Virus record (IMG/VR): IMGVR_UViG_3300022851_000003
Length of the DNA: 59,477 nt
Source of the DNA: a virus
Direction: 5' to 3' (one strand)
The notes under the pieces are model-generated. The model saw only the letters and a list, made by a program, of their open reading frames with translations, was not told where the DNA came from and did no database searches. Position 1 is the stretch's first letter. Every line of letters begins with the position of its first letter. Shown here in pieces: positions 3,057-59,477 of this stretch. Made by a program: the position numbers and the translations under genes.

Positions 3057-3520
3057 TGCCGGCCAACACTCTGCCCACGTACGACGACTGGACGATCGCC
3101 AAGAAGCATCGCGAGATCATCCTCGAGTTGCTGCCATCTGGAATGAGGGCGCCGATCCTGCAACGATCGATCCCTGGATTAATCAACGGACGGTTCACCA
3201 AAGACTTCAAGGCGGGCACGTACCTGATGCCACTGAAAAGCCAAATCGAGGATACGTTTTCCGATCGCCACGATGTCGCCCGCAGTACCATGCTCGTCGT
3301 CGCCGAGGGAGAAACCAGCATCCAATCCAACAGAACCCCGAACTCGATGGTCTTCATGGAACGAATCAGGAATCGTTTCGCTAGCCGACGGATCATGAAC
3401 ATCGTCGGTGAACTTTACTCGACGCACACCTCTCCCGAATACGACGTGGACGATACAATGTCGCGTCGACTCGAGATTATCCCCATTGTCCTAACCACAA
3501 CCATCCGCGAGATTCGCTAA
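3056..3520 (+). CDS. hypothetical protein
   Basis: 154-aa ORF, start overlaps upstream stop. Confidence 0.45.
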   Translation: MPANTLPTYDDWTIAKKHREIILELLPSGMRAPILQRSIPGLINGRFTKDFKAGTYLMPLKSQIEDTFSDRHDVARSTMLVVAEGETSIQSNRTPNSMVFMERIRNRFASRRIMNIVGELYSTHTSPEYDVDDTMSRRLEIIPIVLTTTIREIR

Positions 3521-3592
3521 ACAACCGACCACCCCAGGCGACCCTTTGAGATCGCCCAATCACACAATGCTTCATCACGCCCGCAAGGCGTC

Positions 3593-4588
3593 GTGGACAA
3601 CGTACTTACGGGGATGGCAGTCATGGCATGTAATTTTTGCGGCAGTTTTGGGATCAACACGAAGTTCGGTTTCGCTCCCAGCGGCGCTAACGTGGACGCG
3701 ACGCTCGTGGCGGCCACCACTCGTGAAGAAATCCTCGTCGAGAACCTGAACTACAGCGATAGTGTGGTCGGTGGACGCGGCATCACCGGATGGATGGACG
3801 CTTCCTCGCTGAAACTACGCAACGGCCAAAGGCTTGTCTCCGGTGGGTTGATTATGGAAATCGGCCCGAACCAGATCGCACCCTGGCTCAGCGCCCTCGT
3901 TGGCAACAGCGCGGCGGCGGTTGCGAACGTGTCAACGACCAAGGAGAAGTGGGACGCGATTCCGTTCGACCTCTCGGTTGAACGCGACAACGTCGATCAC
4001 GGCTACCGCTACTGCGTTGTCAACCGCGCCGTCATTCGAGGGCGATCAAACCCAAGAGACCAACAAGGCCAAATCGTCCAGATGGCATTGAGTTTCCTGG
4101 GCGTCGAAGAGGAAGACATTACGTTCCCCGGCGCGTTGGCATTGCCGAGCGACGCGCAGTACCCATGGCTCCTCGGTGACGCGAGCCTAGATTACGGTGG
4201 TGAAACCTGCTCGCTGATCTCGTTCGACATCACAATCGAAAACATGCTCAAGCCTCTGTTCCGCAACCGACTGACCCCTGGTTGCTTTCGATCGCTCGGC
4301 CGAAAAATCACGATGGACTTTGCCGTTCCCTACGGGGCCGATTCGTACGCGGGATACATCGACGACAACTCGGCGGACGCGGCAGCCGCACTCACGTTCG
4401 CGTCGACCAACCTGCCCGCTGCCGTCTCGGATTACTCAACGATCTTCACGTTCCCCCAGACGCGTCGGATTGCCCACAACTACACGACCGCGAGCAAGGA
4501 CGAAATTCCGTTGCAAATGAAACTCCAGGCTTACATCAAGGGGTCTTCGCCAGCAATGACGATTGCGAACGTGATCTCGGCCGCGTAA
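3593..4588 (+). CDS. hypothetical virion protein
   Basis: 331-aa ORF in structural arc. Confidence 0.5.
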   Translation: MDNVLTGMAVMACNFCGSFGINTKFGFAPSGANVDATLVAATTREEILVENLNYSDSVVGGRGITGWMDASSLKLRNGQRLVSGGLIMEIGPNQIAPWLSALVGNSAAAVANVSTTKEKWDAIPFDLSVERDNVDHGYRYCVVNRAVIRGRSNPRDQQGQIVQMALSFLGVEEEDITFPGALALPSDAQYPWLLGDASLDYGGETCSLISFDITIENMLKPLFRNRLTPGCFRSLGRKITMDFAVPYGADSYAGYIDDNSADAAAALTFASTNLPAAVSDYSTIFTFPQTRRIAHNYTTASKDEIPLQMKLQAYIKGSSPAMTIANVISAA

Positions 4589-18100: not shown

Positions 18101-19625
18101 TATGTTCAAGACCAACGTCACCGCCGCGTTCCCCTCGTTCCATACGCGGAACTTGTTCTCGGCCATGATGCAAAACGCACTCAACGGCGTGACCGACACC
18201 TCCGCTACGCGATTGCGAGATCGATTCTTCAAGCCGTACTCGGATGCTCGAAAGGTAATCAATGGCGAGGTTCTTGCGGACGCGAATCAACTACCAGGAA
18301 TGGAAAAACTCTCACCCGAGGAAGCCACCGAAAAGTTCCGAGATGAAATCTTTGCCCAGAAAATCATTGATGCCACGGGCGACCACAACGACATCCCCGG
18401 CCTACCATCGGGTGGCGCGATCGATGCTCGGCCCGGTCAATCGCGTGGTCGTGCGGCGAACTTGCCTGAAAGCAAAGGGTGGGACTTGGTTGAAAAGATT
18501 CCATTTGCTAGGAACTTTGCCCGCAACGTTCGCGAGGCGTCATTGCCACCCAAAAAAACCCGATGGCGGGACACGTTCAACCCGCTCGAAAGTTCGGCCG
18601 TTCGTGGCACACGCGAAGGCACTGTGAAGTACGGCGGTGAGCGAATCGGTCGCGCCCTCGGTAACGAGATTGAATCCACGGTTCGGATCGCCCCGTACAT
18701 TGCCTTTCGTCGACAAGGTTTCACTGCATCAGAAGCCGCCAAAAAAGTTAAATCACTTCAGGTGGACTACAACGACCTAACCAGAACAGAACGCAAAGTG
18801 ATGCGGCGTGCTGCCCCTTTTTATTCGTTCAATAAAGGAGCCACCAAATACCTCGCGGGTGAATTATCCACTCGCCCCGGCGGCCCTGTGGCGATGACGA
18901 TCAAAGCCGCCGAGAACGCATCGGGCAACGACCCCGGCACGCCCGAGTACATTCGCGACGGACTCAACATTCCGCTTGGTGGTGCGGCAGAGGACGGATC
19001 ACGGAACTACCTGACTGGTGCCGGCCTCATGCACGAGCCTCCTGCTCAACTGCTTGGTAATAACATCCAAGAGACATTCTACAACGCAGCCAGCATGGCG
19101 CATCCGATCCCCAAAGCGTTGATCGAATACATCACCGACGAGTCCCTGTTCCTGCGGGACGGCAAGGGAGGCGGACGCGACCTGGACGACATCGACCCGC
19201 CCGTTGGCGGCACACTCCGTAATATCGGCCAATTCACGGGACTACTGGACAAGGAACGCCGTTCCCCCATTGACCTGCCGATCCCATTCGAGAAAGAGTT
19301 TGAACTGGCTGTCGCGAATTCGCCCGCTGCCCGATACCTGTCTCAGATTCGCAAGGCGACGGACAATCGAAAGAACCCTCTCGAAAAGCTGTTAAACGGC
19401 CTAACTGGATTCAATGTCGCCACGGTCGAACCGAATGACCGCGATGCGGTCCTGCGAGAACAACTGGAGCAACTTCTGCGAGACATGGGCGGTCGAACCT
19501 TCAGCCAAGCGTACATGCCCGATACGACACTCGCTGAAATGGGAATGTCGCAGCAAGACCAAGTCGCGAAGATCAAGGAAGCCCTCCGTCAGATCAACGC
19601 ACGACGACGAAACAGCAGCGATTGA
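15129..19625 (+). CDS. very large virion-associated protein (possibly tape-measure or internal protein)
   Basis: 1498-aa uninterrupted ORF ending the structural arc; no catalytic motif recognised. Confidence 0.6.
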   Translation: MSIYDLPVATATRPGRLRGRSIYDNAGYAAPPIGLGNLPSLAAPTMRVAGGAASIYDTPNLPPMQPVPGADQAGPAAMGPPVDPDDPSLFAQARDVGLGGLSMLGNLLDIPGSMVRDALTWIPGGIAARNPLDQLLSPLSDQNRTTGEELLRLDEWQPDSWYGSVGKFGAGMAAEIALDPLTYITLGGTALTKTGGQLASRAGMMGDAANVANRKLAAQAAEAGTDAVTVGAREARQLVNPRELAANLDEASRRKFRDGTTGDILDDAVETVAHTDGHPIGVEELVRSYNGMNARAIKAGEMPAASLSDDMIDAFRTGTASTDDLLAQSNIPADYLDEAIGGNFRFKVPFANKPINIPFTDRAIPDEFVFNDLRLPIPGKARELGGLGARAIGDLPIPKTDKRIQDLIPDFARDLPGMAADGRIEGRTIARAMDKTADAVMNNRPMLTVSSMFDRVGREAKHKLSRAAARESAQRGEEMARVVREEAAGPMADADKKMQAYSRTEGVTQQDVLDTQFDILDRMEGALTDDQLSPVAAQFQPAMDFFTNAFRTQADQAEAFGQNQQRLREGISYEVPKVNPDGTEVLGKDGKPEIEKVVLQSPIEYVPRNRQNESGVMRRVGNAMSKSGRMIQPDGFTKGRDEAMRHLRTSQIQRMSLDKKFAGRADRGVLGGKRSRELAAGNTGQFPDTGVMGSSLLERDTPEWEQAYSAFKKAYPPAKDYMRLAERGELKDINGNLVEWSPALDEALDDKHRQLFSKITQLDRAQVERGVPMFDTNVFQAGLNRLESGYQSAAQELGTRKLLSTSARLAKPRPVAEQSAAPTSKLASTSGRNIDSMNLLGENGENLERLGLNHDRGKQKLLGELAEQGHDIDGMAESIMAPKRDKIATELTELIARNSDTPIADLQGPIREALDNDPDSLLAAITTDEAMQERIGKLVDKYTNVEAKPDDILKKFEIDADLGNDMMAVNTRFSTPEEIKAFTEALDAFTNMFKTNVTAAFPSFHTRNLFSAMMQNALNGVTDTSATRLRDRFFKPYSDARKVINGEVLADANQLPGMEKLSPEEATEKFRDEIFAQKIIDATGDHNDIPGLPSGGAIDARPGQSRGRAANLPESKGWDLVEKIPFARNFARNVREASLPPKKTRWRDTFNPLESSAVRGTREGTVKYGGERIGRALGNEIESTVRIAPYIAFRRQGFTASEAAKKVKSLQVDYNDLTRTERKVMRRAAPFYSFNKGATKYLAGELSTRPGGPVAMTIKAAENASGNDPGTPEYIRDGLNIPLGGAAEDGSRNYLTGAGLMHEPPAQLLGNNIQETFYNAASMAHPIPKALIEYITDESLFLRDGKGGGRDLDDIDPPVGGTLRNIGQFTGLLDKERRSPIDLPIPFEKEFELAVANSPAARYLSQIRKATDNRKNPLEKLLNGLTGFNVATVEPNDRDAVLREQLEQLLRDMGGRTFSQAYMPDTTLAEMGMSQQDQVAKIKEALRQINARRRNSSD

Positions 19626-19630
19626 TCGAA

Positions 19631-19668
19631 CGTGTTACCCTGCGCCGCGCAGGGTAATTACTTGTTAG
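19631..19668. repeat. GC-rich palindromic element, copy 1
   Basis: cgtg TTACCCTGCGCcGCGCAGGGTAA ttacttgtta between convergent stops at 19625 and 19665; near-identical inverted copy at 43347-43384. Confidence 0.6.
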
Positions 19669-19874: not shown

Positions 19875-20089
19875 CGCCCCACACCTGCGTCGGCCTGCTC
19901 TACCGCTTCCATGTATCTCGCTGCTTCGCCGCAAACTATCAACGCTCGATGGAATGCGTGAGCCTGTTCGATTGTCTCAAACTTTGCCACTACCCTCGGT
20001 GAATGATTCGGCGATGACTCGCAAGTAATGAACGACGGTGCTCCGGCCACATCGAGCATCTTGATTGCGTCTACTGCTTCCTGACTCAT
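19871..20089 (-). CDS. hypothetical protein
   Basis: 72-aa ORF overlapping downstream start by 4 nt. Confidence 0.35.
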   Translation of the reverse strand: MSQEAVDAIKMLDVAGAPSFITCESSPNHSPRVVAKFETIEQAHAFHRALIVCGEAARYMEAVEQADAGVGR

Positions 20090-20183
20090 GGTCGCGATCC
20101 TAACAAGCCGTTGAAAAAGACGACGGCTTTAAGTTGGTTGGTTTGGTTTTACGTCTTCTCGCCGTCGCTTTTTAACGGCAGCG

Positions 20184-20519
20184 TTACGACGACTCTCGCC
20201 TTTGATTGCACGCATAACAAACGTCGCCCATGTGCATCGTCTTTCGCCCGCAATGCTTACAGCGTATCTCACGGAACTGCCGCAAGTTTCTGACGTTGTC
20301 GTTCATTGGTGGCTCAGGTGCTTCTAGCATCGCTGCAATCGCCTTGCGAATTGCCGTGGATTGTTTTACGCCGTGCTCATCGCACCACGCCTCAAGCGGC
20401 TGGCGAAGATCGCCGAGCCGCACTGTTGAAAAGACTGTCAACGAGGTTGTCTTTCCGATCGTTGAAAGCGTCAGCAACATTCGCGTACTAACGCTCACGT
20501 TCCTGGGTGTTCGTTTCAC
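20184..20519 (-). CDS. putative DNA-binding regulator with C-terminal zinc ribbon
   Basis: Segment LRQPLEAWCDEHGVKQSTAIRKAIAAMLE followed by CKHCGRK...CYAC. Confidence 0.4.
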   Translation of the reverse strand: MKRTPRNVSVSTRMLLTLSTIGKTTSLTVFSTVRLGDLRQPLEAWCDEHGVKQSTAIRKAIAAMLEAPEPPMNDNVRNLRQFREIRCKHCGRKTMHMGDVCYACNQRRESS

Positions 20520-20997
20520 TGCAATCGTGCCAAATATCTACGGCGGAGGGCCGAGCTACGGGGTAGCTGAACGCAGTATTTTTAACACTCAGACCTGGGA
20601 TTACTATTCGGATTCCGGGGTTGAAATCGACGCTGGCGAATATGCCGGTTTGATCGGGCCGCGAACACAAATAGAGTGGGGCGGCGGGTTTCGCGAATGG
20701 CGATTTCAACCAGTGTTTGAAACAACCACTGTCGATTTAACAACCATTAAAATGAATTTCGAACGCAAATGATTTCTAGGAAGATTGATCGGAGTCATCT
20801 ACGGCGATGTCTGCCAATTTGCCACTTATGCCAGCACTTTGCTGCATACGATTCAGACGGAAATTGTGGGTGTTTGTTACTGCGATCAAATTACAACATT
20901 TGCCCAGGCAAGATCGGCAAGCACTTGCTGCACGGCAAAGGATGCTTGGCCAATCCGCCGTTGTTCTTGTCTGCGAAAACAGAAAATCCCCAACACG

Positions 20998-21022
20998 CCG
21001 CATCACTGCGCGCAGGGGAATA
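20998..21022. repeat. degenerate copy of the palindromic element
   Basis: CTGCGCGCAGGGGAATAACAAG just downstream of the PAPS-reductase-like gene stop. Confidence 0.3.
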
Positions 21023-21042
21023 ACAAGTTCTCTGGATCTTCT

Positions 21043-21909
21043 TTACACGAAACACATGCCGAGCGTGCATTGCTGCACCTTTTCTGCCGATTCGTCGTAG
21101 TCAATATCCGCTTCGGCTAGAGGCACTCGACTGTGATGCAAGAAAACACCGCCTTGCTCGTCCGCTTCGCGAACTTCGCTGTCCGTTTCAATGGCTTTCT
21201 GCCATTGCTCGGGGTAGTTGTCACGGATGTCACGCCATTCGGCGTTGCGCTTGTGCGGGCACATCCAGCAAGACGACTGCTTAGGCAACGGCCAACCAAA
21301 CTCTTTAATGATCGTTAAACATGAGTGAGTGTTTAGCATCAAATCGACCAACGGACAAACCGTTGTCCATCGACCTTCGGTCTTGTGATGCAAGCCCTTC
21401 CATCGCTTCTTTTCTTCGATTCCAAAGCCTAGCCAACGCGTTCCGCCCTTGATTCCTTTGGCCCGCAAGTGTCGATCAACGACACGTTTCTTCCATTCGT
21501 TACTGCAATATGTTTTCAACTTTCCGGTCTGTGTGAACACAGGGAGCAACAGATCACCGTTGCCGGAATACATGTCGACCGTGGCTAGATCGTGGCTTGC
21601 CACTTCGACAGGACATCCGAGTTCGGTCATCATCGGTTGAGTGTACTTTTCGAGGTATTCCCATGTCGTCGGATTTTCTCGGCTGGTGTCTGCCATTACG
21701 ACAACATCAGGCTTCGGCAAAACGCCTTTGGCTATCATGATGCACATCGCAACGGTTTGGCGACCTCCACCGTAGTTGAAGACCAGAGAACAATTTGTTG
21801 CTGCGGATTTGCCGATTAAGTTTATTGGTTTGGTCATAGTTTTTTCTCGCGATGGCGGGACAATTCGAGCGTTACCACGACCTACGTGGCCTTCAAAAAT
21901 ACGATCCAA
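21043..21909 (-). CDS. PAPS-reductase-family protein (ATP pyrophosphatase fold)
   Basis: VVMADTSRENPTTWEYL matches the DTGxxFPET core of the PAPS reductase family; degenerate PP-loop FNYGGGRQT; Cys pair CWMCPHKR. Confidence 0.6.
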   Translation of the reverse strand: MDRIFEGHVGRGNARIVPPSREKTMTKPINLIGKSAATNCSLVFNYGGGRQTVAMCIMIAKGVLPKPDVVVMADTSRENPTTWEYLEKYTQPMMTELGCPVEVASHDLATVDMYSGNGDLLLPVFTQTGKLKTYCSNEWKKRVVDRHLRAKGIKGGTRWLGFGIEEKKRWKGLHHKTEGRWTTVCPLVDLMLNTHSCLTIIKEFGWPLPKQSSCWMCPHKRNAEWRDIRDNYPEQWQKAIETDSEVREADEQGGVFLHHSRVPLAEADIDYDESAEKVQQCTLGMCFV

Positions 21910-29509: not shown

Positions 29510-29594
29510 TCGAGGCGATCGGAATCGAACCGACGCACGCCACCTTTCCGCAAACGCTTCTTAAATGGCCGCTCTACCAGTGAGCTACGCCTCG
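29510..29594 (-). tRNA. tRNA-like element with non-canonical anticodon region
   Basis: Acceptor CGAGGCG/CGCCTCG, D-arm GCTC-ACTGGTA-GAGC, T-arm GTCGG-TTCGATT-CCGAT; a 4-bp stem with a 23-nt loop replaces the anticodon arm. Confidence 0.4.
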
Positions 29595-30539: not shown

Positions 30540-31706
30540 TCACGATTGTTTGTACGGCGATTCATCGAAGTCGATCTTCCCTTGCAGATCACCGACGTAG
30601 AATTTCCGCGTCGTTGTCTCGCTCGAATGCCGCAGGATCTCCTGGCACAGTTGGATAGGCATCCCACGCAGGCTCCATCGCGTGACCATGCTCGACCGGA
30701 AGTGTTTGGCCGTGGCCGTCTTCGGTGGCGACCCGGGTTCGGCGATCACCTCGGCCTTGGCTCCGATCGCGGAGATCAGCTTGGACAGAGCGGTTCGGTC
30801 TTTCACTTCGCCGGTCTCGCAACGCGGCTGGTAAATCGCTTCCGTCCGATCCGCCCGCTCCCGCAGGTGCGATGCGAAGTCGTTGGTAATCCTGGCGACC
30901 TGCGCACGCCGGTTCTTCTGGGCGGAAGTCCACGACATCATCGGTGTCGGCGTGTCGAGTCCGATCGGGTAATGCCAGTCACGGCGGGTTGCGTGCATCC
31001 CCAACGGCTCTCGCATCCGACAACCACTGAGCCAAAGAGCTTCCAGGTATTCCTGAACACTCGCCGCCGACCGGGATCCAACCAGGCCCGGGCAAACGTC
31101 CTGCATCTTCCGCAGCGATTCCTCACTGATCGGGATCAACCGCATCGCAGGAAGGTTCTGCTCTTGTCGGCCACGTCTTCGATTCGGCGGCATGTATCGC
31201 ATCAACTCCAGGGAAGCCGCCCACGAAAGACCGCTTCGGAGCGTTGCCATGTAACTCGGGATCGATCCGACCGCGATCGGCTTAAAGCCATCAATCCCCC
31301 GTCGAAGCGCAGTTTCCACCGAGGCGAGGAACAGAGGGGACACGTCCGAAAGAACGAACTCCCCTTGAATGTCCCGGCCCGCAACGGCATCGACGCGTTT
31401 ACAGACGGCAGACCACTTGTATCGGTTGTCGCTCGATGTGTCACTGAGATGGTCAGTCAGGTAGCGATCGCAGAAACGATCCCACGTCCATCCCTCGTTC
31501 CCCGAATTCAGCTTGGAATTCAGTTTGCTCTGAAGCTCGTCGGCCAGTTTATCGGCCGCTCGCTTCGATCTCTTGGAACGGGTGATGATTTCGGTCTTCT
31601 GGGTCTTAACAGACCGCGAGCCGAAGGGCCGCCACTTCAAGTAGTAGCAGCCCTTCGACGATTTCCAAAACGCGCTCACCCGCACAGTGGGCGCACAATG
31701 ATTCAT
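30540..31706 (-). CDS. int: tyrosine integrase
   Basis: C-terminal catalytic region KHFRSSMVTRW ... LRHSSETTTRKFYV (HxxR, H, Y); next to tRNA-derived att core. Confidence 0.8.
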   Translation of the reverse strand: MNHCAPTVRVSAFWKSSKGCYYLKWRPFGSRSVKTQKTEIITRSKRSKRAADKLADELQSKLNSKLNSGNEGWTWDRFCDRYLTDHLSDTSSDNRYKWSAVCKRVDAVAGRDIQGEFVLSDVSPLFLASVETALRRGIDGFKPIAVGSIPSYMATLRSGLSWAASLELMRYMPPNRRRGRQEQNLPAMRLIPISEESLRKMQDVCPGLVGSRSAASVQEYLEALWLSGCRMREPLGMHATRRDWHYPIGLDTPTPMMSWTSAQKNRRAQVARITNDFASHLRERADRTEAIYQPRCETGEVKDRTALSKLISAIGAKAEVIAEPGSPPKTATAKHFRSSMVTRWSLRGMPIQLCQEILRHSSETTTRKFYVGDLQGKIDFDESPYKQS

Positions 31707-33043: not shown

Positions 33044-33060
33044 GAACGAAGTTGCGACAC
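33044..33060 (+). promoter_or_regulatory. TTGCGACAC motif, copy 1
   Basis: GAACGAAGTTGCGACAC; related copies at 44797-44817 and 54991-55021, all intergenic. Confidence 0.3.
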
Positions 33061-35666: not shown

Positions 35667-35793
35667 TGTGATTCTCCAGTTTGTGAATCAAGTGAACGTC
35701 TTGCCCCGGTCTGTCGCCGGGTTCGTTTCAAGGTGCCGAGGGGGGTGGTTGGTCATGGATGCGTTGCGATGCGAACGCGATACGTCTATCGAA

Positions 35794-41062: not shown

Positions 41063-41593
41063 ATGGACATTCCCAATCTAATCAATCGGATGCGTAGCGG
41101 TGACACACTCGCTGCCCGTGGATTGATCGAGGCACAACGACACGGACGGGCGCTGCGATTGTATCCCGACGGACGCAACGGACCCAACGACGAAGGCGTC
41201 GCACCAATCCTGCTGGAACAAACCGAAAACCTGCTCGTCCATCTGCGACTAGGGCGACCCTGCATTGTCGTTCTCCGACGCGACCAACTCGGCCCGGTCT
41301 TGATGTTCCTGTTCCGCTGCTCTGCCCGTATGATGGCGAACCTAGATCGGTACGATGAATCATCGATCACGCCAGGCATCGGATACCAGACCGGATGCAC
41401 CAACGATCCATGGAAAATCGTGATTTCCTTTTCACCACACGGGCGAATCGATTACGATCTCGGCATCGAGGACTGCATCAGTATCATTACTTCATGGCTT
41501 ACGTTCATCGACCAGCACGAGTGGGAAATCGACGACTGCTCGCTGACCGACGAAGAATACATGGCCCTTTCCCATATCGCCAATCATGTGTGA
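41063..41593 (+). CDS. hypothetical protein
   Basis: 176-aa ORF. Confidence 0.45.
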   Translation: MDIPNLINRMRSGDTLAARGLIEAQRHGRALRLYPDGRNGPNDEGVAPILLEQTENLLVHLRLGRPCIVVLRRDQLGPVLMFLFRCSARMMANLDRYDESSITPGIGYQTGCTNDPWKIVISFSPHGRIDYDLGIEDCISIITSWLTFIDQHEWEIDDCSLTDEEYMALSHIANHV

Positions 41594-42575: not shown

Positions 42576-42901
42576 AAGTTGGCGACCAAGTGGAAGTGAT
42601 AGACGAAGGGCTGGCGATGCTTCGCCGATTGTGTCCGGGGATGCCCCCGAACCATCGCGGAAGGATCGAGGAAATCGACGGCGAAGATGGCAAAGCACAA
42701 CGGACGGCGATACATCGGGATCGAAGTGAACCCGGAGTATTGCGAGATTGCAGAGAAACGCTTAGCGCAACAAGTGCTGTTCTAGGTCAGGGGAACGCTG
42801 CCGATAAAAAGCGACGGCGAGAAAACGTAACCATCACCAACCAACCCAAAGCCGTCGTCTTTTTCAACGGCTTGTTACGATCGCGACCAGTAAAACCATG
42901 A
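42563..42901 (+). CDS. hypothetical protein (reading frame uncertain)
   Basis: 112-aa ORF; a methyltransferase-like remnant is encoded in another frame inside it. Confidence 0.3.
   Translation: MAELKVGDQVEVIDEGLAMLRRLCPGMPPNHRGRIEEIDGEDGKAQRTAIHRDRSEPGVLRDCRETLSATSAVLGQGNAADKKRRRENVTITNQPKAVVFFNGLLRSRPVKP
42603..42785 (+). pseudogene. C-terminal remnant of an N6/N4 DNA methyltransferase
   Basis: 60-codon open frame ending GSRKSTAKMAKHNGRRYIGIEVNPEYCEIAEKRLAQQVLF, resembling the FxGSGTT...GRxFIGIE C-terminus of amino-methyltransferases; no N-terminal half. Confidence 0.4.
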
Positions 42902-43203: not shown

Positions 43204-43346
43204 CGCTTCCAATCAACCGGTTGCGGCCAGTTGATTTCCCACTTCAAAAACCTTTACCCGCAACTCGGTTGCATTGGATTGTTACGTTCGGGCACAAGTC
43301 CGGCAAGGCAGCAACAACGCACTGGGTGACGTTCATCAAGTGCGGA

Positions 43347-43384
43347 TAACAAGTAATTACCCTGCGCCGCGCAGGATAACACAC
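43347..43384. repeat. GC-rich palindromic element, copy 2 (inverted relative to copy 1)
   Basis: taacaagtaa TTACCCTGCGCcGCGCAGGATAA cacac; about 230 bp upstream of the serine recombinase operon. Confidence 0.6.
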
Positions 43385-43407
43385 CAGACTGTCATCAAAA
43401 GAATACC

Positions 43408-43617
43408 ATGCCTCTTCCCGATCTGACGACTCGCCAGCAATCCACTCTCATCAACAAGGTGGATCACAACTGCCGTCGAAATGGCAAGAGATTCCTGCGT
43501 GATCTCGGCGGAACTGGGCACGCCGCTGAACTCGACGCGCAATTACAAATCGCCCGTAACAATCCCGATGCGGTGAAAGCCGCCGAACTCTTTACGAAGG
43601 AGAAAGATCGGAAATGA
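43408..43617 (+). CDS. small protein co-transcribed with serine recombinase
   Basis: 69-aa ORF; stop overlaps recombinase start. Confidence 0.4.
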   Translation: MPLPDLTTRQQSTLINKVDHNCRRNGKRFLRDLGGTGHAAELDAQLQIARNNPDAVKAAELFTKEKDRK

Positions 43618-44438
43618 AAGTCATAGGATATGGTCGTGAATCGACCGCCGACCAATCGATTTCTGCCGAAGTGCAGCAGCGACAATGCCGCGAGTGGTTT
43701 GACCGAACATTCAAGGACAATCCTGACGCGAAGTTTGTGCGAATGCTCAACGACGAGTCCGTCTCAGGCAAGACACGCCTGTTCCAACGTCCGCAGGGGA
43801 GTCTCCTGTTGACCATGCTCGAACGAGGCGACACCGTCGTCGCGTCCAAAATGTCACGGATGTTTCGATCCATGCCCGACACGGTCAACACGCTCGACGT
43901 GTTCAATGAAGCCGGCATCAAGGTCGTGCTGCTCGACATCGGCATGGACTTCGACACGCCAGTGGGCAAACTAATCTTCCACATCCTCGGGGCAGTCAAT
44001 CAGTTTGAACGCGAACTAATCTCCGAGCGGACCAAGGAAGCTCTCGCCCAGCTCCGTGAACGTGGCCAATACCTCGGCTCACCACCGCCGGGGTGGAAGT
44101 TCGACAGCAAGCGGACCAACGGGATTCGGGAACTGATCCCTGACATGGACCGCCGCACCTTCGGGGAATACTCCCTCGATCAACTGGTCGAAGGCCGATC
44201 CGCCAAGTCGATTGCCTGCGAGATCGAAGCACTATTGCGGCGCGAGCACATCCAACGACACGGCACCAACCTGAAGGAAAAACGAGAGAAGATCGCGTTC
44301 TCCGACACCGATGTCGTTCGACTCGCCGCCTTTGCAGTGGCCGGGTTCCCGCCGATCAATAGCACGGCGCTGAAAAAAGTCCTCGGTGTCAATCCATTCC
44401 GAGTTGAAACCCTGCGGCAACTGGCAGCGTCCGCCTAA
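43614..44438 (+). CDS. serine recombinase (resolvase/invertase family)
   Basis: N-terminal VIGYGRESTADQS with catalytic Ser context; resolvase-like core through QFERELISERTKEAL; C-terminal extension. Confidence 0.75.
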   Translation: MKVIGYGRESTADQSISAEVQQRQCREWFDRTFKDNPDAKFVRMLNDESVSGKTRLFQRPQGSLLLTMLERGDTVVASKMSRMFRSMPDTVNTLDVFNEAGIKVVLLDIGMDFDTPVGKLIFHILGAVNQFERELISERTKEALAQLRERGQYLGSPPPGWKFDSKRTNGIRELIPDMDRRTFGEYSLDQLVEGRSAKSIACEIEALLRREHIQRHGTNLKEKREKIAFSDTDVVRLAAFAVAGFPPINSTALKKVLGVNPFRVETLRQLAASA

Positions 44439-44725
44439 CCGGACTTCGAGCCGATGAATTCTTTCGCCCAGCGGATCGTGCTGTAGCGGACGTTGCCGAT
44501 CCACTGGATCTTCAGTGTCTTGGAATGCTTCTTCTTCTTCCGTGAGAGCCCGCCGGTTGCCCATCGCTGATACGTGCGATACGTGCAATTGATGACACCC
44601 GCCTTCTCCATCGCTTTCGCAAGCTGCGGTAGCGTCATCAGGGTTGTCTCCTCAGCGACATCCTGATCGCCCCAAATCTCTTGCGCCTCGTGGCTTGTAG
44701 CCACCGTCTTCTTCGTCGCAGTCAT
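44435..44725 (-). CDS. HTH DNA-binding protein (excisionase/MerR-like)
   Basis: ORF 44435-44776 begins with TTG; ATG at 44725; segment MTLPQLAKAMEKAGVINCTYRTYQRWATGG. Confidence 0.45.
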   Translation of the reverse strand: MTATKKTVATSHEAQEIWGDQDVAEETTLMTLPQLAKAMEKAGVINCTYRTYQRWATGGLSRKKKKHSKTLKIQWIGNVRYSTIRWAKEFIGSKSG

Positions 44726-44796
44726 GCGATCATTCCCACCATGGTGTGCTGAAACTGCCCTTCCGTGAGCAAACAAAACTGTACAAATCTTAACGA

Positions 44797-44817
44797 CTTT
44801 ATACGAAGTTGCGACAC
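44797..44817 (+). promoter_or_regulatory. TTGCGACAC motif, copy 2
   Basis: CTTTATACGAAGTTGCGACAC in the divergent region before the structural arc. Confidence 0.35.
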
Positions 44818-44916
44818 AAACACCGAAAAACTATTGCTGCTTTACCACTCGTCGGTTTCATTGCAAAAGCTGAACTGCCTTTACAGACGCAATGAATTCT
44901 TGGGAAAGCCGACGCA

Positions 44917-46068
44917 ATGCCTGTCGAAGACACCACCAACGACGACGCGATTGACAACGAAACCGATGTCGTAGTCGACGATGCGATCGATCAAACCGAC
45001 GTGGCCTCGGTCGATGACCAAGCGGTCGATGCGGTCGACGACAACGCGATCGATGAAGTGGGTGTTGGCGCAAACGCTACCGATGATTCCGCCGCCGATG
45101 ATTGGCAAGCGCCCTATCGCGAACTCGGTTTTGAAAACCTGGAGTCGCCCGAGCAGGCCCAGCAACGCGTCATGGAATCGCTGCGTCAAGAGCGGATGCG
45201 TGCCCAGGAAGCCGTTCAACAGGCGCGTTACTTCCAAACCGCCTACACCAATCACGTCGGGCAAGCCTCTCCTGCGCAGCCCGATACGCCGACCGCTCCC
45301 GAGCAACCCTCTTCGTTGTTCGCCCAGATGGCATCCGATTGGCCCGAGATTGCCCAAGACGAGATCGATCCGTTCATCGAAAAGGATGACAACGGACGGG
45401 CGACCGGATGGAAGAACGGCACGCCCCCGAGTCTGATCGAGAAATCGAACGCTTACATTCGCGCCCGTGCCAAGTGGGACGAAGTTGTCAGCGATCCACG
45501 ACGCCTCTCCGAAGCGATCGAGCAACAGTTCCAAACGATGCTCGACTCACACCTCGATGGTCGACTGGAACAACGCGAGCAGGTCACCACCGAACAGCGC
45601 GCCGAACAGGAATTCCTCACCAGCAACTCGGATTGGCTGTACGAAAAAGACCCGTACTCCGGCCAGCCATCGAACCAACCGACCGCCGCCGGCCGCCAGT
45701 TCCATTCGATCTTCGAGTCCACGAAGGAGCAGTACGGCGTGACCAACATGGCCAAACGGATTCAACTCGCCACGCAGTTATTCCAAGCACAACAAGCCGC
45801 CGCCGGAATCACACCCAACCAACCTGCCGCTGCGCCAGTTCCCGCTCGCCCCGCTACGGTGCCTGCCGGTCAACAACAACCCGCTGCGACTCAAACCACC
45901 GCCGCCGATGTCCGCCGTCAAATGCTCGGTCAACGCAACGGCGCTCCCGCTCGACCAACTTCCGCCGCCGGTGTGAACGATGGACCGGGCGGTTCACCCG
46001 CTGGCGCATCACGCATGTCCTATGGGCAATTGGTCGCAAGCGGAATGAAACAAGAGGGCACGTTATAG
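44917..46068 (+). CDS. hypothetical acidic protein (possible scaffolding protein)
   Basis: 383-aa ORF, very acidic N-terminus, Gln/Ala-rich helical middle; first gene of late arc. Confidence 0.45.
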   Translation: MPVEDTTNDDAIDNETDVVVDDAIDQTDVASVDDQAVDAVDDNAIDEVGVGANATDDSAADDWQAPYRELGFENLESPEQAQQRVMESLRQERMRAQEAVQQARYFQTAYTNHVGQASPAQPDTPTAPEQPSSLFAQMASDWPEIAQDEIDPFIEKDDNGRATGWKNGTPPSLIEKSNAYIRARAKWDEVVSDPRRLSEAIEQQFQTMLDSHLDGRLEQREQVTTEQRAEQEFLTSNSDWLYEKDPYSGQPSNQPTAAGRQFHSIFESTKEQYGVTNMAKRIQLATQLFQAQQAAAGITPNQPAAAPVPARPATVPAGQQQPAATQTTAADVRRQMLGQRNGAPARPTSAAGVNDGPGGSPAGASRMSYGQLVASGMKQEGTL

Positions 46069-47995: not shown

Positions 47996-48586
47996 GTGCC
48001 CCGCCCTGCTGACGAACCTGCTTTCACGCCCGAGCATCCGCCGGGCGACGAAAAGTTCTGCACGCTATGCGGGGAAGAAAAACCCATCGACGAATTCCAC
48101 GTCGATGAGTCGGCTCATGACGGACGCAAGTCCAATTGCAAGGCGTGCCGATCACTTCAGCACGCCGAAGATGTGGAGTCTAAGGTCGACCCCCGCCTCG
48201 CCAAGATTGAAGAGGCAGGACTCGAAGCGCTCGACGCCTTCGCGGGTGGCGGATCATTCAACCCGCACACCCAAGAGCTGATCGACGGGTTTATGAGATT
48301 CCTGGGCGGTCACTACGGCCTGGTGAAACTGACGATGGCCCACTACCACGCGGCCAAACCAGGCAGTGCCGAGCGAGGGAAGACACTCGATAAAATCTAC
48401 CGGCTGATCGCCGCTGAGGACAAGCAGGATGGCTCGCTCGACAAACTTGACCGACGCCAACTCGAAGCCCTCGTCGTCAGCATCGGCACCAAAGCCGGGA
48501 TGCTGCCCAAGCCGAACGACACGCTGTCTCTCGATCACCCCGAAACCGTCAACGCGATCGCCCGTTCCAAAGGCGACGCACTATGA
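47996..48586 (+). CDS. zinc-ribbon protein (possible terminase small subunit)
   Basis: CTLCGEEK...CKAC; directly upstream of and overlapping the large terminase start. Confidence 0.35.
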   Translation: MPRPADEPAFTPEHPPGDEKFCTLCGEEKPIDEFHVDESAHDGRKSNCKACRSLQHAEDVESKVDPRLAKIEEAGLEALDAFAGGGSFNPHTQELIDGFMRFLGGHYGLVKLTMAHYHAAKPGSAERGKTLDKIYRLIAAEDKQDGSLDKLDRRQLEALVVSIGTKAGMLPKPNDTLSLDHPETVNAIARSKGDAL

Positions 48587-51441
48587 TTGACGACATCGAA
48601 TTCAGTGACATCGATCTTTCGACACACCTCGACACCGCCAACGAGATGCAGTCGGGCAGCGAAGCCAACGACTACGTGATCGACGAGTATCACCTGCACA
48701 AGATGCACTCCGCAGCGTCGGAGATCCAGCGCCGGGACATGGAGGCGATGCGGATCTATCGCCCCTCCAAAATCCAAGAGCAGTACCACGCATCCACTGC
48801 CAAGGAGACCGTGTTCGTTGCCGGGAACCAAATCGGCAAATCCATTGCCGGATACTCGGAAGACGGACGAGCTGCCGGTGGATGCGACCCGTACGGCAAG
48901 TACCCCGAGAAAGATGGCATCCTGGCCATCGTGGTCTACAAGGAATCGCAGATCAGGCTGAACACCTATCGGTATCTCCTCAAGCCCGGTGCGTTCGACA
49001 TCATCCAAGACGAAGAGACCGGCATCTGGAAACCCTATTATCCCTGGGTTCCCTCCGATGTTGCTCGCGCCGATCAACGGCGGCCCGCCCCACCGATCCT
49101 TCCACCGCGAATGATTAAGAGAATCCACTGGAAGTCCAAGATGGGCAACGTCCTGTCTCGGATCGACATGGAGAACGGTTGGGAGATTCACGTCTTCTCG
49201 TCGACCGCGAAACCAGATGCCGGGTTCCAAGCCGACCTCGTTCATATCGATGAAGACATCGCCAACGAAGAATGGTACGTCGAGATGATCGCCCGTCTCT
49301 CGATCCGCAAGGGACTCCTGCGATGGACCGCCCTACCGCTGTTCGATAACGACGCGCTGCCTCGTATCGTCGAACGGGCCGACGACGAAGCGGAGAAGCA
49401 CGCACGCGGCGGACCTGTGCCTACCACGACGGTCGTTCGCGGAACCATTTTCGATAACCCGTACCTGACCGACGATACCCGCGAAGAAAACATCAAGCGA
49501 TGGAAGGACGCGGGCGACGATGTCTACCGGCAACGTGCCCTCGGAGAACTCATCACCGACACGGTTCGGATGTACCCGACGTTCACGCCGGAAATCCATG
49601 CCGTCCAACGTTACGGCGAATCGCATCCTGAGTTGTTCGGCGAGTACCTTCGCACCCGTCGAATCCCCGACGATTGGTGTCTGAGATTGTTTGTTGACCC
49701 TGGGTTCTCCACCTGTGCCGCGTTGCTGTTCGCGACCCTGCGACCCGAGGGCGGCGACGACTCCGAACCAATGATTCACGTTGCTGTGCGTGAAATCTAT
49801 CGCCAGCAATGTGACGCCTCGATCTTTGCCCAACTCGCCTCGCAAACCGTTGGCGATCGATGGTTGCAAGCGATGGTCATCGACGCCCACGGTGGTCGAC
49901 TCACCGGCATCGGCGATGGTCGGCGTCCACAAGAGATCTACGAAAGCGAACTGGCCGAACGAAACGTCGTGTGCGTGGAGACCGGCTCTCGCTTCCGTGC
50001 TGGCTGCGACGACATCGTCTACCGGGAAACCGCACTGCGACAACGGTTGATCGTCTCGCCAGTCACCGGGCTACCGGAGTTTATGTACGACGAGGAGATG
50101 TGCCCGAACCTTGAAAAAGAAATGGTGCGGTTCCGAAAGCTGAGAACCCGTGGCGTCATCACCGATAAAGGCAACCGCAAAGCATTTACGCACGCTGTCG
50201 AGTGTTTCTGTGACCAAACCGAAGTCCTTACTGAAAGTGGCTGGAAGCGTTTTGCAGACGCCAGTATCAGCGACCGTTTAGCGACCGTGAACTTGGATAC
50301 CGATACGCTTGAGTTTCAGCATCCATCTCGAATTGTTGAAAGACCTCACAACGGACCGATGGTTCATGTTCACGCACAGAAGCTCAATGCGATGGTCACT
50401 CCTAATCATCGGATGGTTTACTACTCCGACACCGCAAGGCGAAAAAAGACAGGTCCATCTATCTGTTTCGCGGGCGACCTGTCTCCAAGCTATGCGTTAA
50501 AGCTGGCGGCAAAAAACTGGAACGCAGTTTCACCAAAGACATTCGTGCTGCCTGCGGTAGAACTGGATTCGCGACCAGGTAAGCCTGCCGAATTAAACAG
50601 ACTCGACTTCGCCCGGTTCATGGGATGGTACATCGCCGAAGGCTCTGCGGACAAAACAGTGCGTTGCCCTGGAAAGGGCTATCGCGTGTGCATTGCACAG
50701 AGAAAAGAACACGGCATCAACGCGATTCGCGAAATGCTTTCAAAGCTACCGTTTCATTTCGTTGTATCGGGCGACTGCTTCGTGATCTCCAACAAGCAAC
50801 TGTGGTCGTACCTTCGCCAGTTCGGAGACTGCTACACCAAGTTCGTTCCAGACTGGGTGCGACACGGAAGCAGAGAAGTCATCGAGTCGTTTATGGAAGG
50901 CGCTATGGCTGGCGATGGGTGGGTACAAAAGAACGCTCGACGATACGGAACCTCCAGCCCCCGCCTCGCCGACGACATCCAAGAACTATTCCTCAAACTC
51001 GGTTGTTCTGCATCTGTCACTGTTCGGTCGGCAGAGACGGCCGTGTCAAGGATGGTGAGAGGAAAGCCCTGCAAATCTACCTGTGATTTCTTCACGGTAA
51101 TCGAGAGGCTTGTTCCGAGCGTCCGCCTTAGTGACGCACACGACAAGCCGAATTTCAGCACAACGAACTACACCGGAAAGGTGTTCTGCGCAACCGTCCC
51201 CAATGGGACTCTTGTTGTAAGACGCAACGGCCAACCGCTCGTCGCTGGCAATTGCTATGAGTACGCAGCCGCCGACGAACTCAAGTACCACGCACCTCCC
51301 GCCCGTCGAACCCGCGAAACCCCCGGCGAACGTCGTGTTCGGATGTGGCGGGAACGCCAAGCGAAGCGACGAAAACAAATGGGTGGCGCTCTCGGCGTCA
51401 TCCATGGCGGCATCGACCTGTCTGCTCCCATGCCCACTTAA
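48583..51441 (+). CDS. terL: terminase large subunit interrupted by an intein
   Basis: P-loop-like VFVAGNQIGKS, Walker B-like ADLVHIDE, nuclease-like RLFVDPGFS and AMVIDAHGG; 350-aa intein in the C-terminal region. Confidence 0.65.
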   Translation: MIDDIEFSDIDLSTHLDTANEMQSGSEANDYVIDEYHLHKMHSAASEIQRRDMEAMRIYRPSKIQEQYHASTAKETVFVAGNQIGKSIAGYSEDGRAAGGCDPYGKYPEKDGILAIVVYKESQIRLNTYRYLLKPGAFDIIQDEETGIWKPYYPWVPSDVARADQRRPAPPILPPRMIKRIHWKSKMGNVLSRIDMENGWEIHVFSSTAKPDAGFQADLVHIDEDIANEEWYVEMIARLSIRKGLLRWTALPLFDNDALPRIVERADDEAEKHARGGPVPTTTVVRGTIFDNPYLTDDTREENIKRWKDAGDDVYRQRALGELITDTVRMYPTFTPEIHAVQRYGESHPELFGEYLRTRRIPDDWCLRLFVDPGFSTCAALLFATLRPEGGDDSEPMIHVAVREIYRQQCDASIFAQLASQTVGDRWLQAMVIDAHGGRLTGIGDGRRPQEIYESELAERNVVCVETGSRFRAGCDDIVYRETALRQRLIVSPVTGLPEFMYDEEMCPNLEKEMVRFRKLRTRGVITDKGNRKAFTHAVECFCDQTEVLTESGWKRFADASISDRLATVNLDTDTLEFQHPSRIVERPHNGPMVHVHAQKLNAMVTPNHRMVYYSDTARRKKTGPSICFAGDLSPSYALKLAAKNWNAVSPKTFVLPAVELDSRPGKPAELNRLDFARFMGWYIAEGSADKTVRCPGKGYRVCIAQRKEHGINAIREMLSKLPFHFVVSGDCFVISNKQLWSYLRQFGDCYTKFVPDWVRHGSREVIESFMEGAMAGDGWVQKNARRYGTSSPRLADDIQELFLKLGCSASVTVRSAETAVSRMVRGKPCKSTCDFFTVIERLVPSVRLSDAHDKPNFSTTNYTGKVFCATVPNGTLVVRRNGQPLVAGNCYEYAAADELKYHAPPARRTRETPGERRVRMWRERQAKRRKQMGGALGVIHGGIDLSAPMPT
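50203..51252 (+). mobile_element. intein with LAGLIDADG homing endonuclease
   Basis: Block A CFCDQTEVLTESG, block B TPNH, LAGLIDADG motifs FMGWYIAEGS and FMEGAMAGDG, C-terminal VAGN followed by Cys +1. Confidence 0.7.
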
Positions 51442-54990: not shown

Positions 54991-55021
54991 AACTGAACGA
55001 ATTTATACGAACTTGCGACAC
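54991..55021 (+). promoter_or_regulatory. TTGCGACAC motif, copy 3
   Basis: AACTGAACGAATTTATACGAACTTGCGACAC. Confidence 0.35.
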
Positions 55022-58337: not shown

Positions 58338-59357
58338 ATGTCTGGCACATCCCTCGATCTATCGCAAATTCGCACCGACGCTCTCACGAGCGCCGCGACG
58401 TTTCGGACGTTGATCGGTGTGTACTCGACTGCGGACGTCGATGGGCTGATCGCTGCGATTACAGCGTTGACAAGCGAGGACATTGACACCCTTGCTGAAA
58501 TCAACGCGATCATTGGAGATGCCGATGTTGCGTCAGTGTCTTATGTCGATGGACTGGCAGCGAACTACGCCACAGCGGCACAGGGGGCACTTGCTGACAC
58601 CGCGTTGCAATCCGCCGACATCACAAGCGGTGCGATCACGGCGGGGACGGGAGACATTGATTTTGACGCTCTAGGTGGTGCAGGGTCGCCTCTTGTTTTG
58701 ACTGCTTCACTAGCGACTGAAGTCCCTCTAACAGTCAAAGCCGCAGCAAGTCAAACGGCCAACTTGACTGAGTGGCAGGATAATGCTGGGACTAATCTGA
58801 CTTGGGTCGACAAACTCGGTAATATCTATCTACAAGGTGCAGCCAGTAGATTATTTCGAATTTATATGGAAGGTTCTAACCCGGTACTAGATGCCACTGT
58901 CGGAGCTGCGTCTGCGAGGATAAGCCTAAAAGGCGCGCCTGTTAGACTGATGGGAAACGTGGAGTTTAGCAACGTAACAAACCAGATAATGGCTCAAATA
59001 ATCACGAGTAGTTTTGACGTCCAACTGATCGGTAATACCGCTGGTAGTTTCTCTATATCTATTCCACAATCGAGCAACGGAAACCAAGGCAATGAAACTC
59101 TCTCGATCACTGGACAAACAGCCGAGGAACTTTCTACCAATGTAATTGTTGGCGGCGATGTCGTGATAACGGCTGGTGACGGAGCATCAGCTAGTGCCGG
59201 TGCTGCTGACGGAGGTGATTTAATTCTCCAAGGTGGTACAGGATACGGGACCGGGAGACAAGGGCTTATACTGGCTAGCAATTTACCTACGTCTGATCCC
59301 ACCGTTGCCGGAGCACTTTGGAACGACAGCGGCACTCTTAAAATATCAGTAGGTTAA
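58338..59357 (+). CDS. tail-fibre-like protein
   Basis: Ala/Thr/Gly/Ser-rich 339-aa ORF ending AGALWNDSGTLKISVG; stop lies in the terminal overlap. Confidence 0.5.
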   Translation: MSGTSLDLSQIRTDALTSAATFRTLIGVYSTADVDGLIAAITALTSEDIDTLAEINAIIGDADVASVSYVDGLAANYATAAQGALADTALQSADITSGAITAGTGDIDFDALGGAGSPLVLTASLATEVPLTVKAAASQTANLTEWQDNAGTNLTWVDKLGNIYLQGAASRLFRIYMEGSNPVLDATVGAASARISLKGAPVRLMGNVEFSNVTNQIMAQIITSSFDVQLIGNTAGSFSISIPQSSNGNQGNETLSITGQTAEELSTNVIVGGDVVITAGDGASASAGAADGGDLILQGGTGYGTGRQGLILASNLPTSDPTVAGALWNDSGTLKISVG

Positions 59358-59477
59358 ATAATGGCAGACTCAGTAAGAATCCAAATCATCCGAGACGACG
59401 TCGTCGTAGACGACTCATCGGCGGTCCTCGGATCAATGCAAGACGGGACCAAAGTGCTTGACGCAATGGTCGCCGCG
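59351..59477. repeat. terminal overlap copy 2
   Basis: Identical to 1-127. Confidence 0.95.

Follow-up and report, generated by a model that had tools for sequence, protein, structure and literature searches.

Why should a phage genome that already carries a tyrosine integrase also encode a recombinase of the serine type? The question is raised by IMG/VR virus record IMGVR_UViG_3300022851_000003, analysed here over its whole stretch of 59,477 nucleotides (hereafter the window), which is a circularly assembled phage genome of ~59.35 kb with bases 1-127 repeated at 59351-59477. The original prediction, made from the letters alone, described a serine recombinase co-transcribed with a small upstream open reading frame (ORF) and considered three explanations, namely resolution of multimers, inversion of DNA or a remnant of another element. 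Both ORFs are found where it had placed them:

43408..43617, plus strand: ORF of 69 amino acids (aa) upstream of the recombinase, a real gene by selection, with an ATGA overlap with the recombinase gene
43614..44438, plus strand: serine recombinase of 274 aa, with a catalytic domain, an alpha-E helix (residues 116-149) and a C-terminal DNA-binding domain of ~120 aa

The 274-aa product is an intact serine site-specific recombinase under purifying selection. The complete PF00239 domain and this selective signal bear out the claim of a genuine second recombinase besides the tyrosine integrase. As to its role, the answer proposed here is tentative, with a probability of about 0.4: an active, atypical serine recombinase may act on the phage genome as it replicates, its most plausible task being the resolution of multimers or cointegrates, with integration carried out by the tyrosine integrase. 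Confidence in the identity of the enzyme as a serine recombinase is much higher than confidence in this role.

The two genes overlap by 4 bp (ATGA), an AGGAG motif stands 11 nt 5' of the recombinase ATG, and the pair is translationally coupled. The 69-aa ORF is 78% identical to the 80-aa ORF found at the same position in the related contig L016, with a ratio of non-synonymous to synonymous substitution rates (dN/dS) of ~0.11. For the recombinase and its 73%-identical L016 homologue, the proportions of non-synonymous and synonymous differences are pN=0.18 and pS=0.78, the latter being saturated. The purifying signal in both ORFs indicates that both are real genes. Family searches with the 69-aa ORF gave no match; among the relatives it occurs in L016 only and is absent from L017, L023, L105 and L106. 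The recombinase itself is found, protein-identical, on 20 metagenome contigs from many samples. A single island of high nucleotide conservation is shared by the window and L016, at 43588-43650, and it corresponds to the ribosome-binding site (RBS), the start codon and the catalytic N-terminus; the candidate DNA site that conserved synonymous positions might have marked was rejected on this ground.

The catalytic domain is complete. PF00239 (Resolvase) covers residues 3-153 over profile positions 1-145 of 145, with E=2e-33 and 116 bits against a cutoff of 23.3. In PDB sequence searches the best match is the Gin invertase (4m6f, E=2e-17), and the protein also aligns to gamma-delta/Tn3 resolvase (1gdt, residues 1-141). 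The best-scoring PHROG is a 'DNA invertase', and PHROG 95 'integrase' also matches, at 9e-40. Active-site residues are given here in Tn3 numbering unless paired with a residue of the window. Alignment to gamma-delta resolvase places Y6, R8, S10, Q14, Q21 (=Q19), D47 (=D36), R59 (=R45), R82 (=R68) and R85 (=R71), and the columns Y6, R8, S10, Q14, Q19, D36, R45, R68 and R71 are invariant in a 9-sequence alignment with homologues down to 35% identity. Mutation of Y6, R8, S10, D36, R68 and R71, as well as of Q14, Q19 and R45, abolishes Tn3 resolvase activity, and all of these residues are present. A missing catalytic serine or missing arginines, which the original prediction had named as the sign of an inactive remnant, were thus sought by alignment, and the residues are there; since they are kept, the protein is not an inactive remnant and is probably catalytically competent. 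The domain starts at residue 3, and no N-terminal helix-turn-helix of the kind found in IS607-type serine transposases precedes it.

The sole departure from the conserved set is at position D67, occupied by Ser81 in the motif 'KMSRMFRS'. Serine or threonine is found at this position in nine other members of the clade (P0002, P0003, P0053, P0055, P0056, P0058, P0059, P0065 and P0082), and aspartate is retained in the sister cluster P0004. The recurrence of the replacement in the nine indicates a feature of the lineage rather than decay. In Tn3 resolvase, the D67A and D67N mutants keep substantial cleavage and recombination in vitro and fail in the in-vivo resolution assay; the D67 side chain was judged not essential by the authors (PMC2794168).

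Gene context suggests what such an enzyme might be kept for. Head, terminase, portal and tail genes occupy the plus strand from 44.9 kb round to 19.6 kb, and the non-structural (early) region at 19.7-43.4 kb encodes RecT, a PDDEXK exonuclease, a RecU-like protein, DUF932 and a tyrosine-integrase-like protein. The recombinase is the last gene of the early block in five diverged uncultured phages (L016, L017, L023, L105 and L106), its position being retained at identities of 73% (L016), 40%, 37% and lower. The order is complete in L106 (DUF932, a clamp-like gene of ~340 aa, a gene of ~190 aa, the recombinase), and parts of it are found on the shorter contigs L016, L017, L023 and L105. In L106, early genes rather than head genes lie 3' of the recombinase, and the same early genes still precede it. 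The recombinase is a conserved core early gene, repeatedly alongside a tyrosine integrase, and its constant position in five diverged phages speaks against a remnant of another element.

30540..31706, minus strand: tyrosine-integrase-like gene of 388 aa, matching PHROG_1 'integrase' at E=3.4e-10

The tyrosine integrase of the original prediction is there as an integrase-like gene by its PHROG_1 match; its PF00589 score (19 bits, E=1e-3) lies below the 27-bit cutoff. An Rfam tRNA match of 48 bits and 85 nt is found at 29510-29594 on the minus strand, between the exonuclease and the tyrosine integrase, and ARAGORN reports no tRNA in the window; the sequence may be either a tRNA of the phage or an attP derived from a tRNA. 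Cousins of the recombinase with aspartate at D67 reside in integrative elements with a tyrosine integrase and a DUF3987-family gene (Pfam match), which we take to encode a primase/helicase. Because a tyrosine integrase is present here and in the elements with these cousins, the serine recombinase is not needed for integration. In two such elements (L021, 5490-5650; L022, 1550-1710), three direct copies of TCTTTCGG face three inverted copies of CCGAAAGA ~110 bp away, 3' of the cousin and just 5' of an HTH_17 gene and the DUF3987-family gene. This array could be an iteron-type origin or an accessory site for the recombinase.

In the mechanism proposed here, a recombinase dimer would bind a short dyad site, two dimers would synapse, all four strands would be cleaved by Ser10 with the cuts staggered by 2 nt, and the DNA ends would be swapped as the subunits rotate. 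In this way the circular replicating phage would have its dimeric and multimeric genomes, or its recombination cointegrates, resolved, and chromosomal integration would be left to the tyrosine integrase. With RecT, the PDDEXK exonuclease and the RecU-like protein, the phage encodes its own source of recombination products. Several points weigh against this proposal. The resolvase role is deduced from gene context; a junction resolvase, the RecU-like protein, is already encoded by the phage; and no res-like or dyad target was found near the gene, which in the relatives has no non-coding flanks. Ser81 might lower the activity, as D67N and D67A failed in Tn3 resolution in vivo. Finally, one clade member, P0054 (283 aa), lacks S10 (T), R68 (S) and R71 (G) and retains the C-terminal domain. 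This version of the scaffold, inactivated in nature, indicates that the scaffold can persist without catalysis.

The last two points also bear on a reading in which the protein is a catalytically weak or inactive DNA-binding protein, that is, a regulator derived from a recombinase and acting by repression or architectural binding. A convergent gene that overlaps the recombinase gene suggests regulatory interplay and adds to it. This reading is very unlikely, given that all the other catalytic residues are invariant across homologues of 35-73% identity, which would be pointless without catalysis, and that D67 is non-essential in Tn3 resolvase in vitro.

44435..44776, minus strand: convergent small gene, of 96 aa with the ATG at 44725 as start or of 113 aa with the TTG at 44776, its 3' end overlapping the recombinase stop codon

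This small gene is divergent from the head-gene operon, and gene calls give it 96 aa on every metagenome contig. Homologues hold the same overlapping position in L017, L023 and L105 (27% identity with that of L023, E=4e-12), so that a small gene converges on the recombinase 3' end in four of the five lineages with an available downstream flank, window included; in the window, L017, L023 and L105 the ~100-aa gene overlaps by 4-68 nt and head genes come next. On the minus strand, the first terminator-like signal for its transcript is a palindrome ~1 kb downstream (copy 2, described below). The transcript would therefore be antisense to the whole recombinase gene, and control of the recombinase by antisense RNA or transcriptional interference is possible. 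Neither this gene nor the 176-aa gene upstream of the recombinase gave an informative family or PDB match, apart from weak DUF1580 matches for two homologues of the small gene. These matches presumably hint at a planctomycete host, and the phage group possibly infects planctomycetes.

The C-terminal half is where the enzyme becomes atypical. Residues 154-274 match nothing in Pfam, NCBIfam or PDB sequence searches, and for the recombinase as a whole no NCBIfam model comes near its own cutoff. Pfam detects neither HTH_7 (PF02796) nor the recombinase domain PF07508, and nothing at all past residue 153; the zinc-ribbon domain (PF13408) with its embedded coiled coil is absent both from the Pfam results and from the model, the protein stopping at residue 274. 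AlphaFold models reach a mean predicted local distance difference test score (pLDDT) of 83 for the full length and 90 for the C-terminal part alone. They show a long alpha-E helix followed by a beta-hairpin and five helices, which make up the C-terminal domain of ~120 aa. In structure comparisons the whole protein is matched best by the large serine recombinase Bxb1, with 268 aligned columns, and for both the whole protein and the C-terminal domain alone the closest folds are large serine integrases (Bxb1, SPbeta and phiC31). The models thus lend moderate support to a predicted architecture of a catalytic domain joined to a DNA binder resembling the recombinase domain, with neither zinc ribbon nor coiled coil. 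A profile search with the C-terminal domain among 1.84 billion proteins returned 47 cluster representatives only, nearly all of 250-305 aa, and the recombinase belongs to a rare clade of uncharacterised phage serine recombinases. Nothing relevant on enzymes that have a recombinase domain and no zinc ribbon was turned up by a search of the literature.

These folds raise the question of whether the protein is a stripped-down serine integrase or excision enzyme, perhaps working with the convergent small protein, which could be its directionality factor; the tyrosine recombinase would then have another task, such as Xer-like dimer resolution. The PHROG 95 match and many tblastn matches to annotated phage serine integrases point the same way as the modelled fold. 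In large serine integrases, the zinc-ribbon and coiled-coil domains provide discrimination between attP and attB and directionality, and it is these domains that are missing here. A tyrosine integrase adjoined by a tRNA-like sequence is present, the contigs found are all free or circular and phage-like with no host junction, and no full-length relative appeared in the best 80 loci from 185,579 species genomes, a scan that was keyed on the generic 'FERE' motif and dominated by catalytic-domain matches, all of them to the N-terminal domain. On balance, an integrase of this kind is unlikely.

Resolution of multimers remains the preferred reading, and it calls for a target site. The original prediction took the position of the gene, next to the second copy of a palindrome, as favouring a site-specific role. 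Each palindrome lies in a 36-nt repeat:

19632..19667, plus strand: 36-nt repeat with palindrome copy 1 (19635-19657), matched by the terminator scan on the plus strand
43347..43382, minus strand: 36-nt repeat with palindrome copy 2 (43357-43379), matched by the terminator scan, with its T-rich tail on the minus strand

The 23-bp palindrome, TTACCCTGCGC-C-GCGCAGGRTAA, has two near-identical copies in the window, with none expected by chance. The 36-nt copies are inverted to each other and 34/36 complementary; the T-rich tail (TTACTTGTT) of both is directed into the early region, and copy 1 lies 7 nt 3' of the stop codon of the last late gene (1498-aa ORF). As minus-strand RNA, copy 2 folds at -20.2 kcal/mol with its one mismatch becoming a G.U pair, and no hairpin is predicted for the plus strand. 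A variant palindrome in L015 carries a compensatory C>T/G>A pair that keeps the hairpin; together with the G.U pair, this makes the pattern fit an RNA hairpin. The cut of serine recombinases is staggered by 2 nt and has its centre between base pairs, and the dyad, of odd length (23 bp) with a single central base, does not fit such a cut. Near the recombinase, L016, L017 and L023 (73%, 40% and 37% identity) lack the palindrome, and in L015 it lies between unrelated small genes with no recombinase nearby. The palindromes look like terminator-like hairpins at a module boundary and not like a recombinase target. As a res or crossover site they were rejected for their terminator-like character, their odd dyad, their loss beside the gene in relatives and their occurrence in L015 without the recombinase; for the same reasons their proximity lends no weight to a site-specific role.

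Nor was a target found elsewhere near the gene. A scan for dyads at 43204-43640 and 44700-44920 returned only two hairpins and the palindrome, with no array of a shared 12-bp motif, and the suggested res-like array of three subsites was not seen in 43204-43407. A second pair of inverted repeats lies ~450 nt inside the 36-nt copies, and together the two pairs bracket the 23.7-kb early region:

20089..20185, minus strand: left copy of the ~97-nt inverted repeat, directly 5' of a minus-strand 72-aa ORF
42794..42889, plus strand: right copy of the ~97-nt inverted repeat, directly 5' of a 101-aa ORF

The middle part of this repeat aligns to the RBS and the 'MTKPINL' codons of a 288-aa gene and of a 178-aa gene of L005, with the ATG destroyed. 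A third, partial copy is found at 21816-21847. The left copy folds well (z=-3.8), and Rfam finds nothing at the repeats. The 97-nt repeats are best read as fossil 5' gene leaders and not as recombinase sites. The candidacy of the repeat as a recombinase site or structured RNA was dropped in view of the gene RBS and first codons lacking an ATG, the partial third copy and a strain deletion between copies. This deletion is seen in six strains (L107-L109 and L111-L113), which lack 1.66 kb between leader-like copies. The strain cassette at 20161-21815 carries, in the window and L110, a PAPS-reductase-like gene of 288 aa and small ORFs; L108, L109, L111 and L112, which are without the 1.66 kb, have a C5 DNA methylase upstream (422 aa; 265 aa in L112). 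In L023, inverted repeats of 36 nt flank 519 bp 5' of the recombinase; this candidate was likewise rejected, being a fossil of the N-terminus of a paralogue, with no open frame left after inversion.

The arrangement of the repeats brings in another role, that of a DNA invertase flipping the 23.7-kb early region between the 36-nt repeats, or operating a smaller switch. Gin as the best PDB sequence match and 'DNA invertase' as the best PHROG would suit it, and the gene lies 230 bp outside one 36-nt arm with the 97-nt inverted pair just inside, a layout reminiscent of gin and its G segment. Contigs crossing the junctions argue otherwise. All 10 crossings at copy 1 in the window strain are in the window orientation (L107-L113, L115 and the IMG/VR contig L011, with L110 identical to the window), and at copy 2 seven contigs are of the window type, two have unrelated flanks and none is inverted. 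The inverted arrangement is thus seen in 0 of 19 contig crossings of both junctions, where assemblies give the majority form only, and a search of IMG/VR for one predicted inverted junction found nothing. Inversion of the 19.6-43.4 kb segment was rejected on these grounds, and the proposal that the recombinase drives DNA inversion finds no example in any contig. Moreover, the inverted repeats are otherwise explained, as terminator and fossil leader; the palindrome is not beside the gene in relatives and is a dyad of 23 bp with a single central base; HTH_7 is lacking; and the tail-fibre region has no inverted repeats. We regard the invertase role as improbable.

The repeats do mark sharp boundaries. 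The 35.6-kb arm that carries the recombinase and all structural genes ends in perfect 36-nt terminal inverted repeats. Three variants (L005, L007 and L013) are 99.4-99.8% identical to the window over the arm and continue in unrelated early sequence from the inner edge of the 36-nt element. The switch points are 43347/8 in L005 and L007 and 19666/7 in L013 (contig positions 5205, 154 and 5249 in L005, L007 and L013, respectively). In the window, the 61 nt that precede copy 2 match at 100% identity the 3' end of a gene carried intact by L005 and are a fossil of it. A separate difference in L013 is a ~1 kb insertion (3418-4406) in the 1498-aa late (tail/tape-measure-like) gene at window position 18823-18825, with flanks 99.4-99.7% identical; it may be a mobile intron, an intein or a homing element.

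Could the recombinase make these boundaries? It would then act on the two inverted 36-nt sites and swap or invert the 23.7-kb early module between co-infecting phages, in a form of cassette exchange. The variants, which on both sides diverge right at the inner repeat edge, the recombinase gene at one end of the arm and the perfect terminal inverted repeats would agree with this. However, homologous recombination at a shared intergenic terminator predicts the same pattern, and RecT and the exonuclease are present. The site is asymmetric, a hairpin with a one-sided T-rich tail, and its dyad is of odd length; the palindrome is missing near the recombinase in the relatives of 73%, 40% and 37% identity; and other boundaries in the same genomes are plainly junctions of fossil homology. 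Such exchange by the recombinase is highly improbable. The repeats are ordinary mosaic boundaries where related phages exchange early regions, plausibly through the RecT/exonuclease module or host homologous recombination. If exchange at the 36-nt sites were nevertheless true, it would be a natural case of recombinase-mediated cassette exchange and would explain the nucleotide-exact breakpoints in the three variants.

Upstream of the operon, a further gene links the window to its relatives:

41063..41593, plus strand: gene of 176 aa ('RLYPDGR' family), 53% identical to a 174-aa ORF of L016

In the window, ~2 kb of inserted small genes lie between it and the recombinase, whereas in relatives a gene of this family stands directly 5' of the recombinase gene or overlaps it. 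Its N-terminal stretch recurs, as read from translations, in the L023 ORF just 5' of the recombinase. In its place L017, L105 and L106 have ORFs of 189-194 aa, matched by position and not by sequence.

Other repeated elements lie in the early region and beyond it. Six to seven copies of the ACCACCCCCCTCnCCAnCTTG motif are found at early-gene boundaries (35723-35749, inverted, and 35873, 36936, 37176, 38018, 39406 and 40563). The sole inverted copy of the window is in the divergent region upstream of DUF932. The motif also occurs in L016 at about 1215-1240, and at the corresponding places in L023 (613-648 and 5188-5223) another motif, of 36 nt, is found. ACCACCCCCCTCnCCAnCTTG is probably a class of early promoter or operator; it was rejected as a recombination site, as its direct copies would delete essential genes, and its copies are read as promoter-like or gene-boundary elements. 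ACGAASTTGCGACAC occurs in three exact copies on one strand (33046-33060, 44803-44817 and 55007-55021), with a conserved AACGA upstream. One lies in the divergent region just 5' of the head operon, beside the convergent partner gene of the recombinase, and ACGAASTTGCGACAC may serve as a late or middle promoter, or as the site of a regulator. Among the structural genes, the large terminase (48583-51441, 952 aa) contains a LAGLIDADG-type insertion, probably an intein; its homologues are of 586 aa in L017 and 948 aa in L023, and the L003 version is split by gene calling into two parts (519 + 439 aa). Neither the major capsid protein nor the portal has a match in 50,697 GenBank phages.

As things stand, the result is an ordinary annotation of a second recombinase. 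The phage group, uncultured and without cultured relatives, retains the gene in its early module and shows very sharp module swapping at shared terminator-like elements. If the clade is active, it would represent a minimal enzyme of the serine-integrase type, without the zinc-ribbon/coiled-coil directionality apparatus and with D67S naturally tolerated. It could help to tell which share of the architecture of large serine recombinases site recognition requires, and could be of use as a compact tool.

Compared with known systems, the recombinase resembles the Tn3/gamma-delta resolvases, Gin and Hin in its end-to-end catalytic alignment, Ser10, the R8/R68/R71 triad, the long alpha-E helix and a similar size class, and Gin is also the second recombinase of a temperate phage. 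It differs from them in its C-terminal domain of ~120 aa, where theirs is an HTH_7 of 40-50 aa, and in the serine at D67; moreover, no adjoining res site or invertible segment was found, and the gene is not beside tail-fibre genes. In contrast to Bxb1, phiC31, SPbeta SprA and A118, the protein has only 274 aa, lacks the zinc ribbon and coiled coil and gives no detectable PF07508 match; it co-occurs with a tyrosine integrase, and no attP/attB pair is known for it. The borders of the early region are like those of mosaic phage modules and 'moron' cassettes, with short conserved intergenic elements (terminator hairpin, leader fossil), differing cargo between identical flanks and strain replacement exactly at the elements. 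Unlike these boundaries, a single 36-nt element stands, inverted, at both ends of the 23.7-kb early region, and the 35.6-kb arm therefore looks as if it had terminal inverted repeats.

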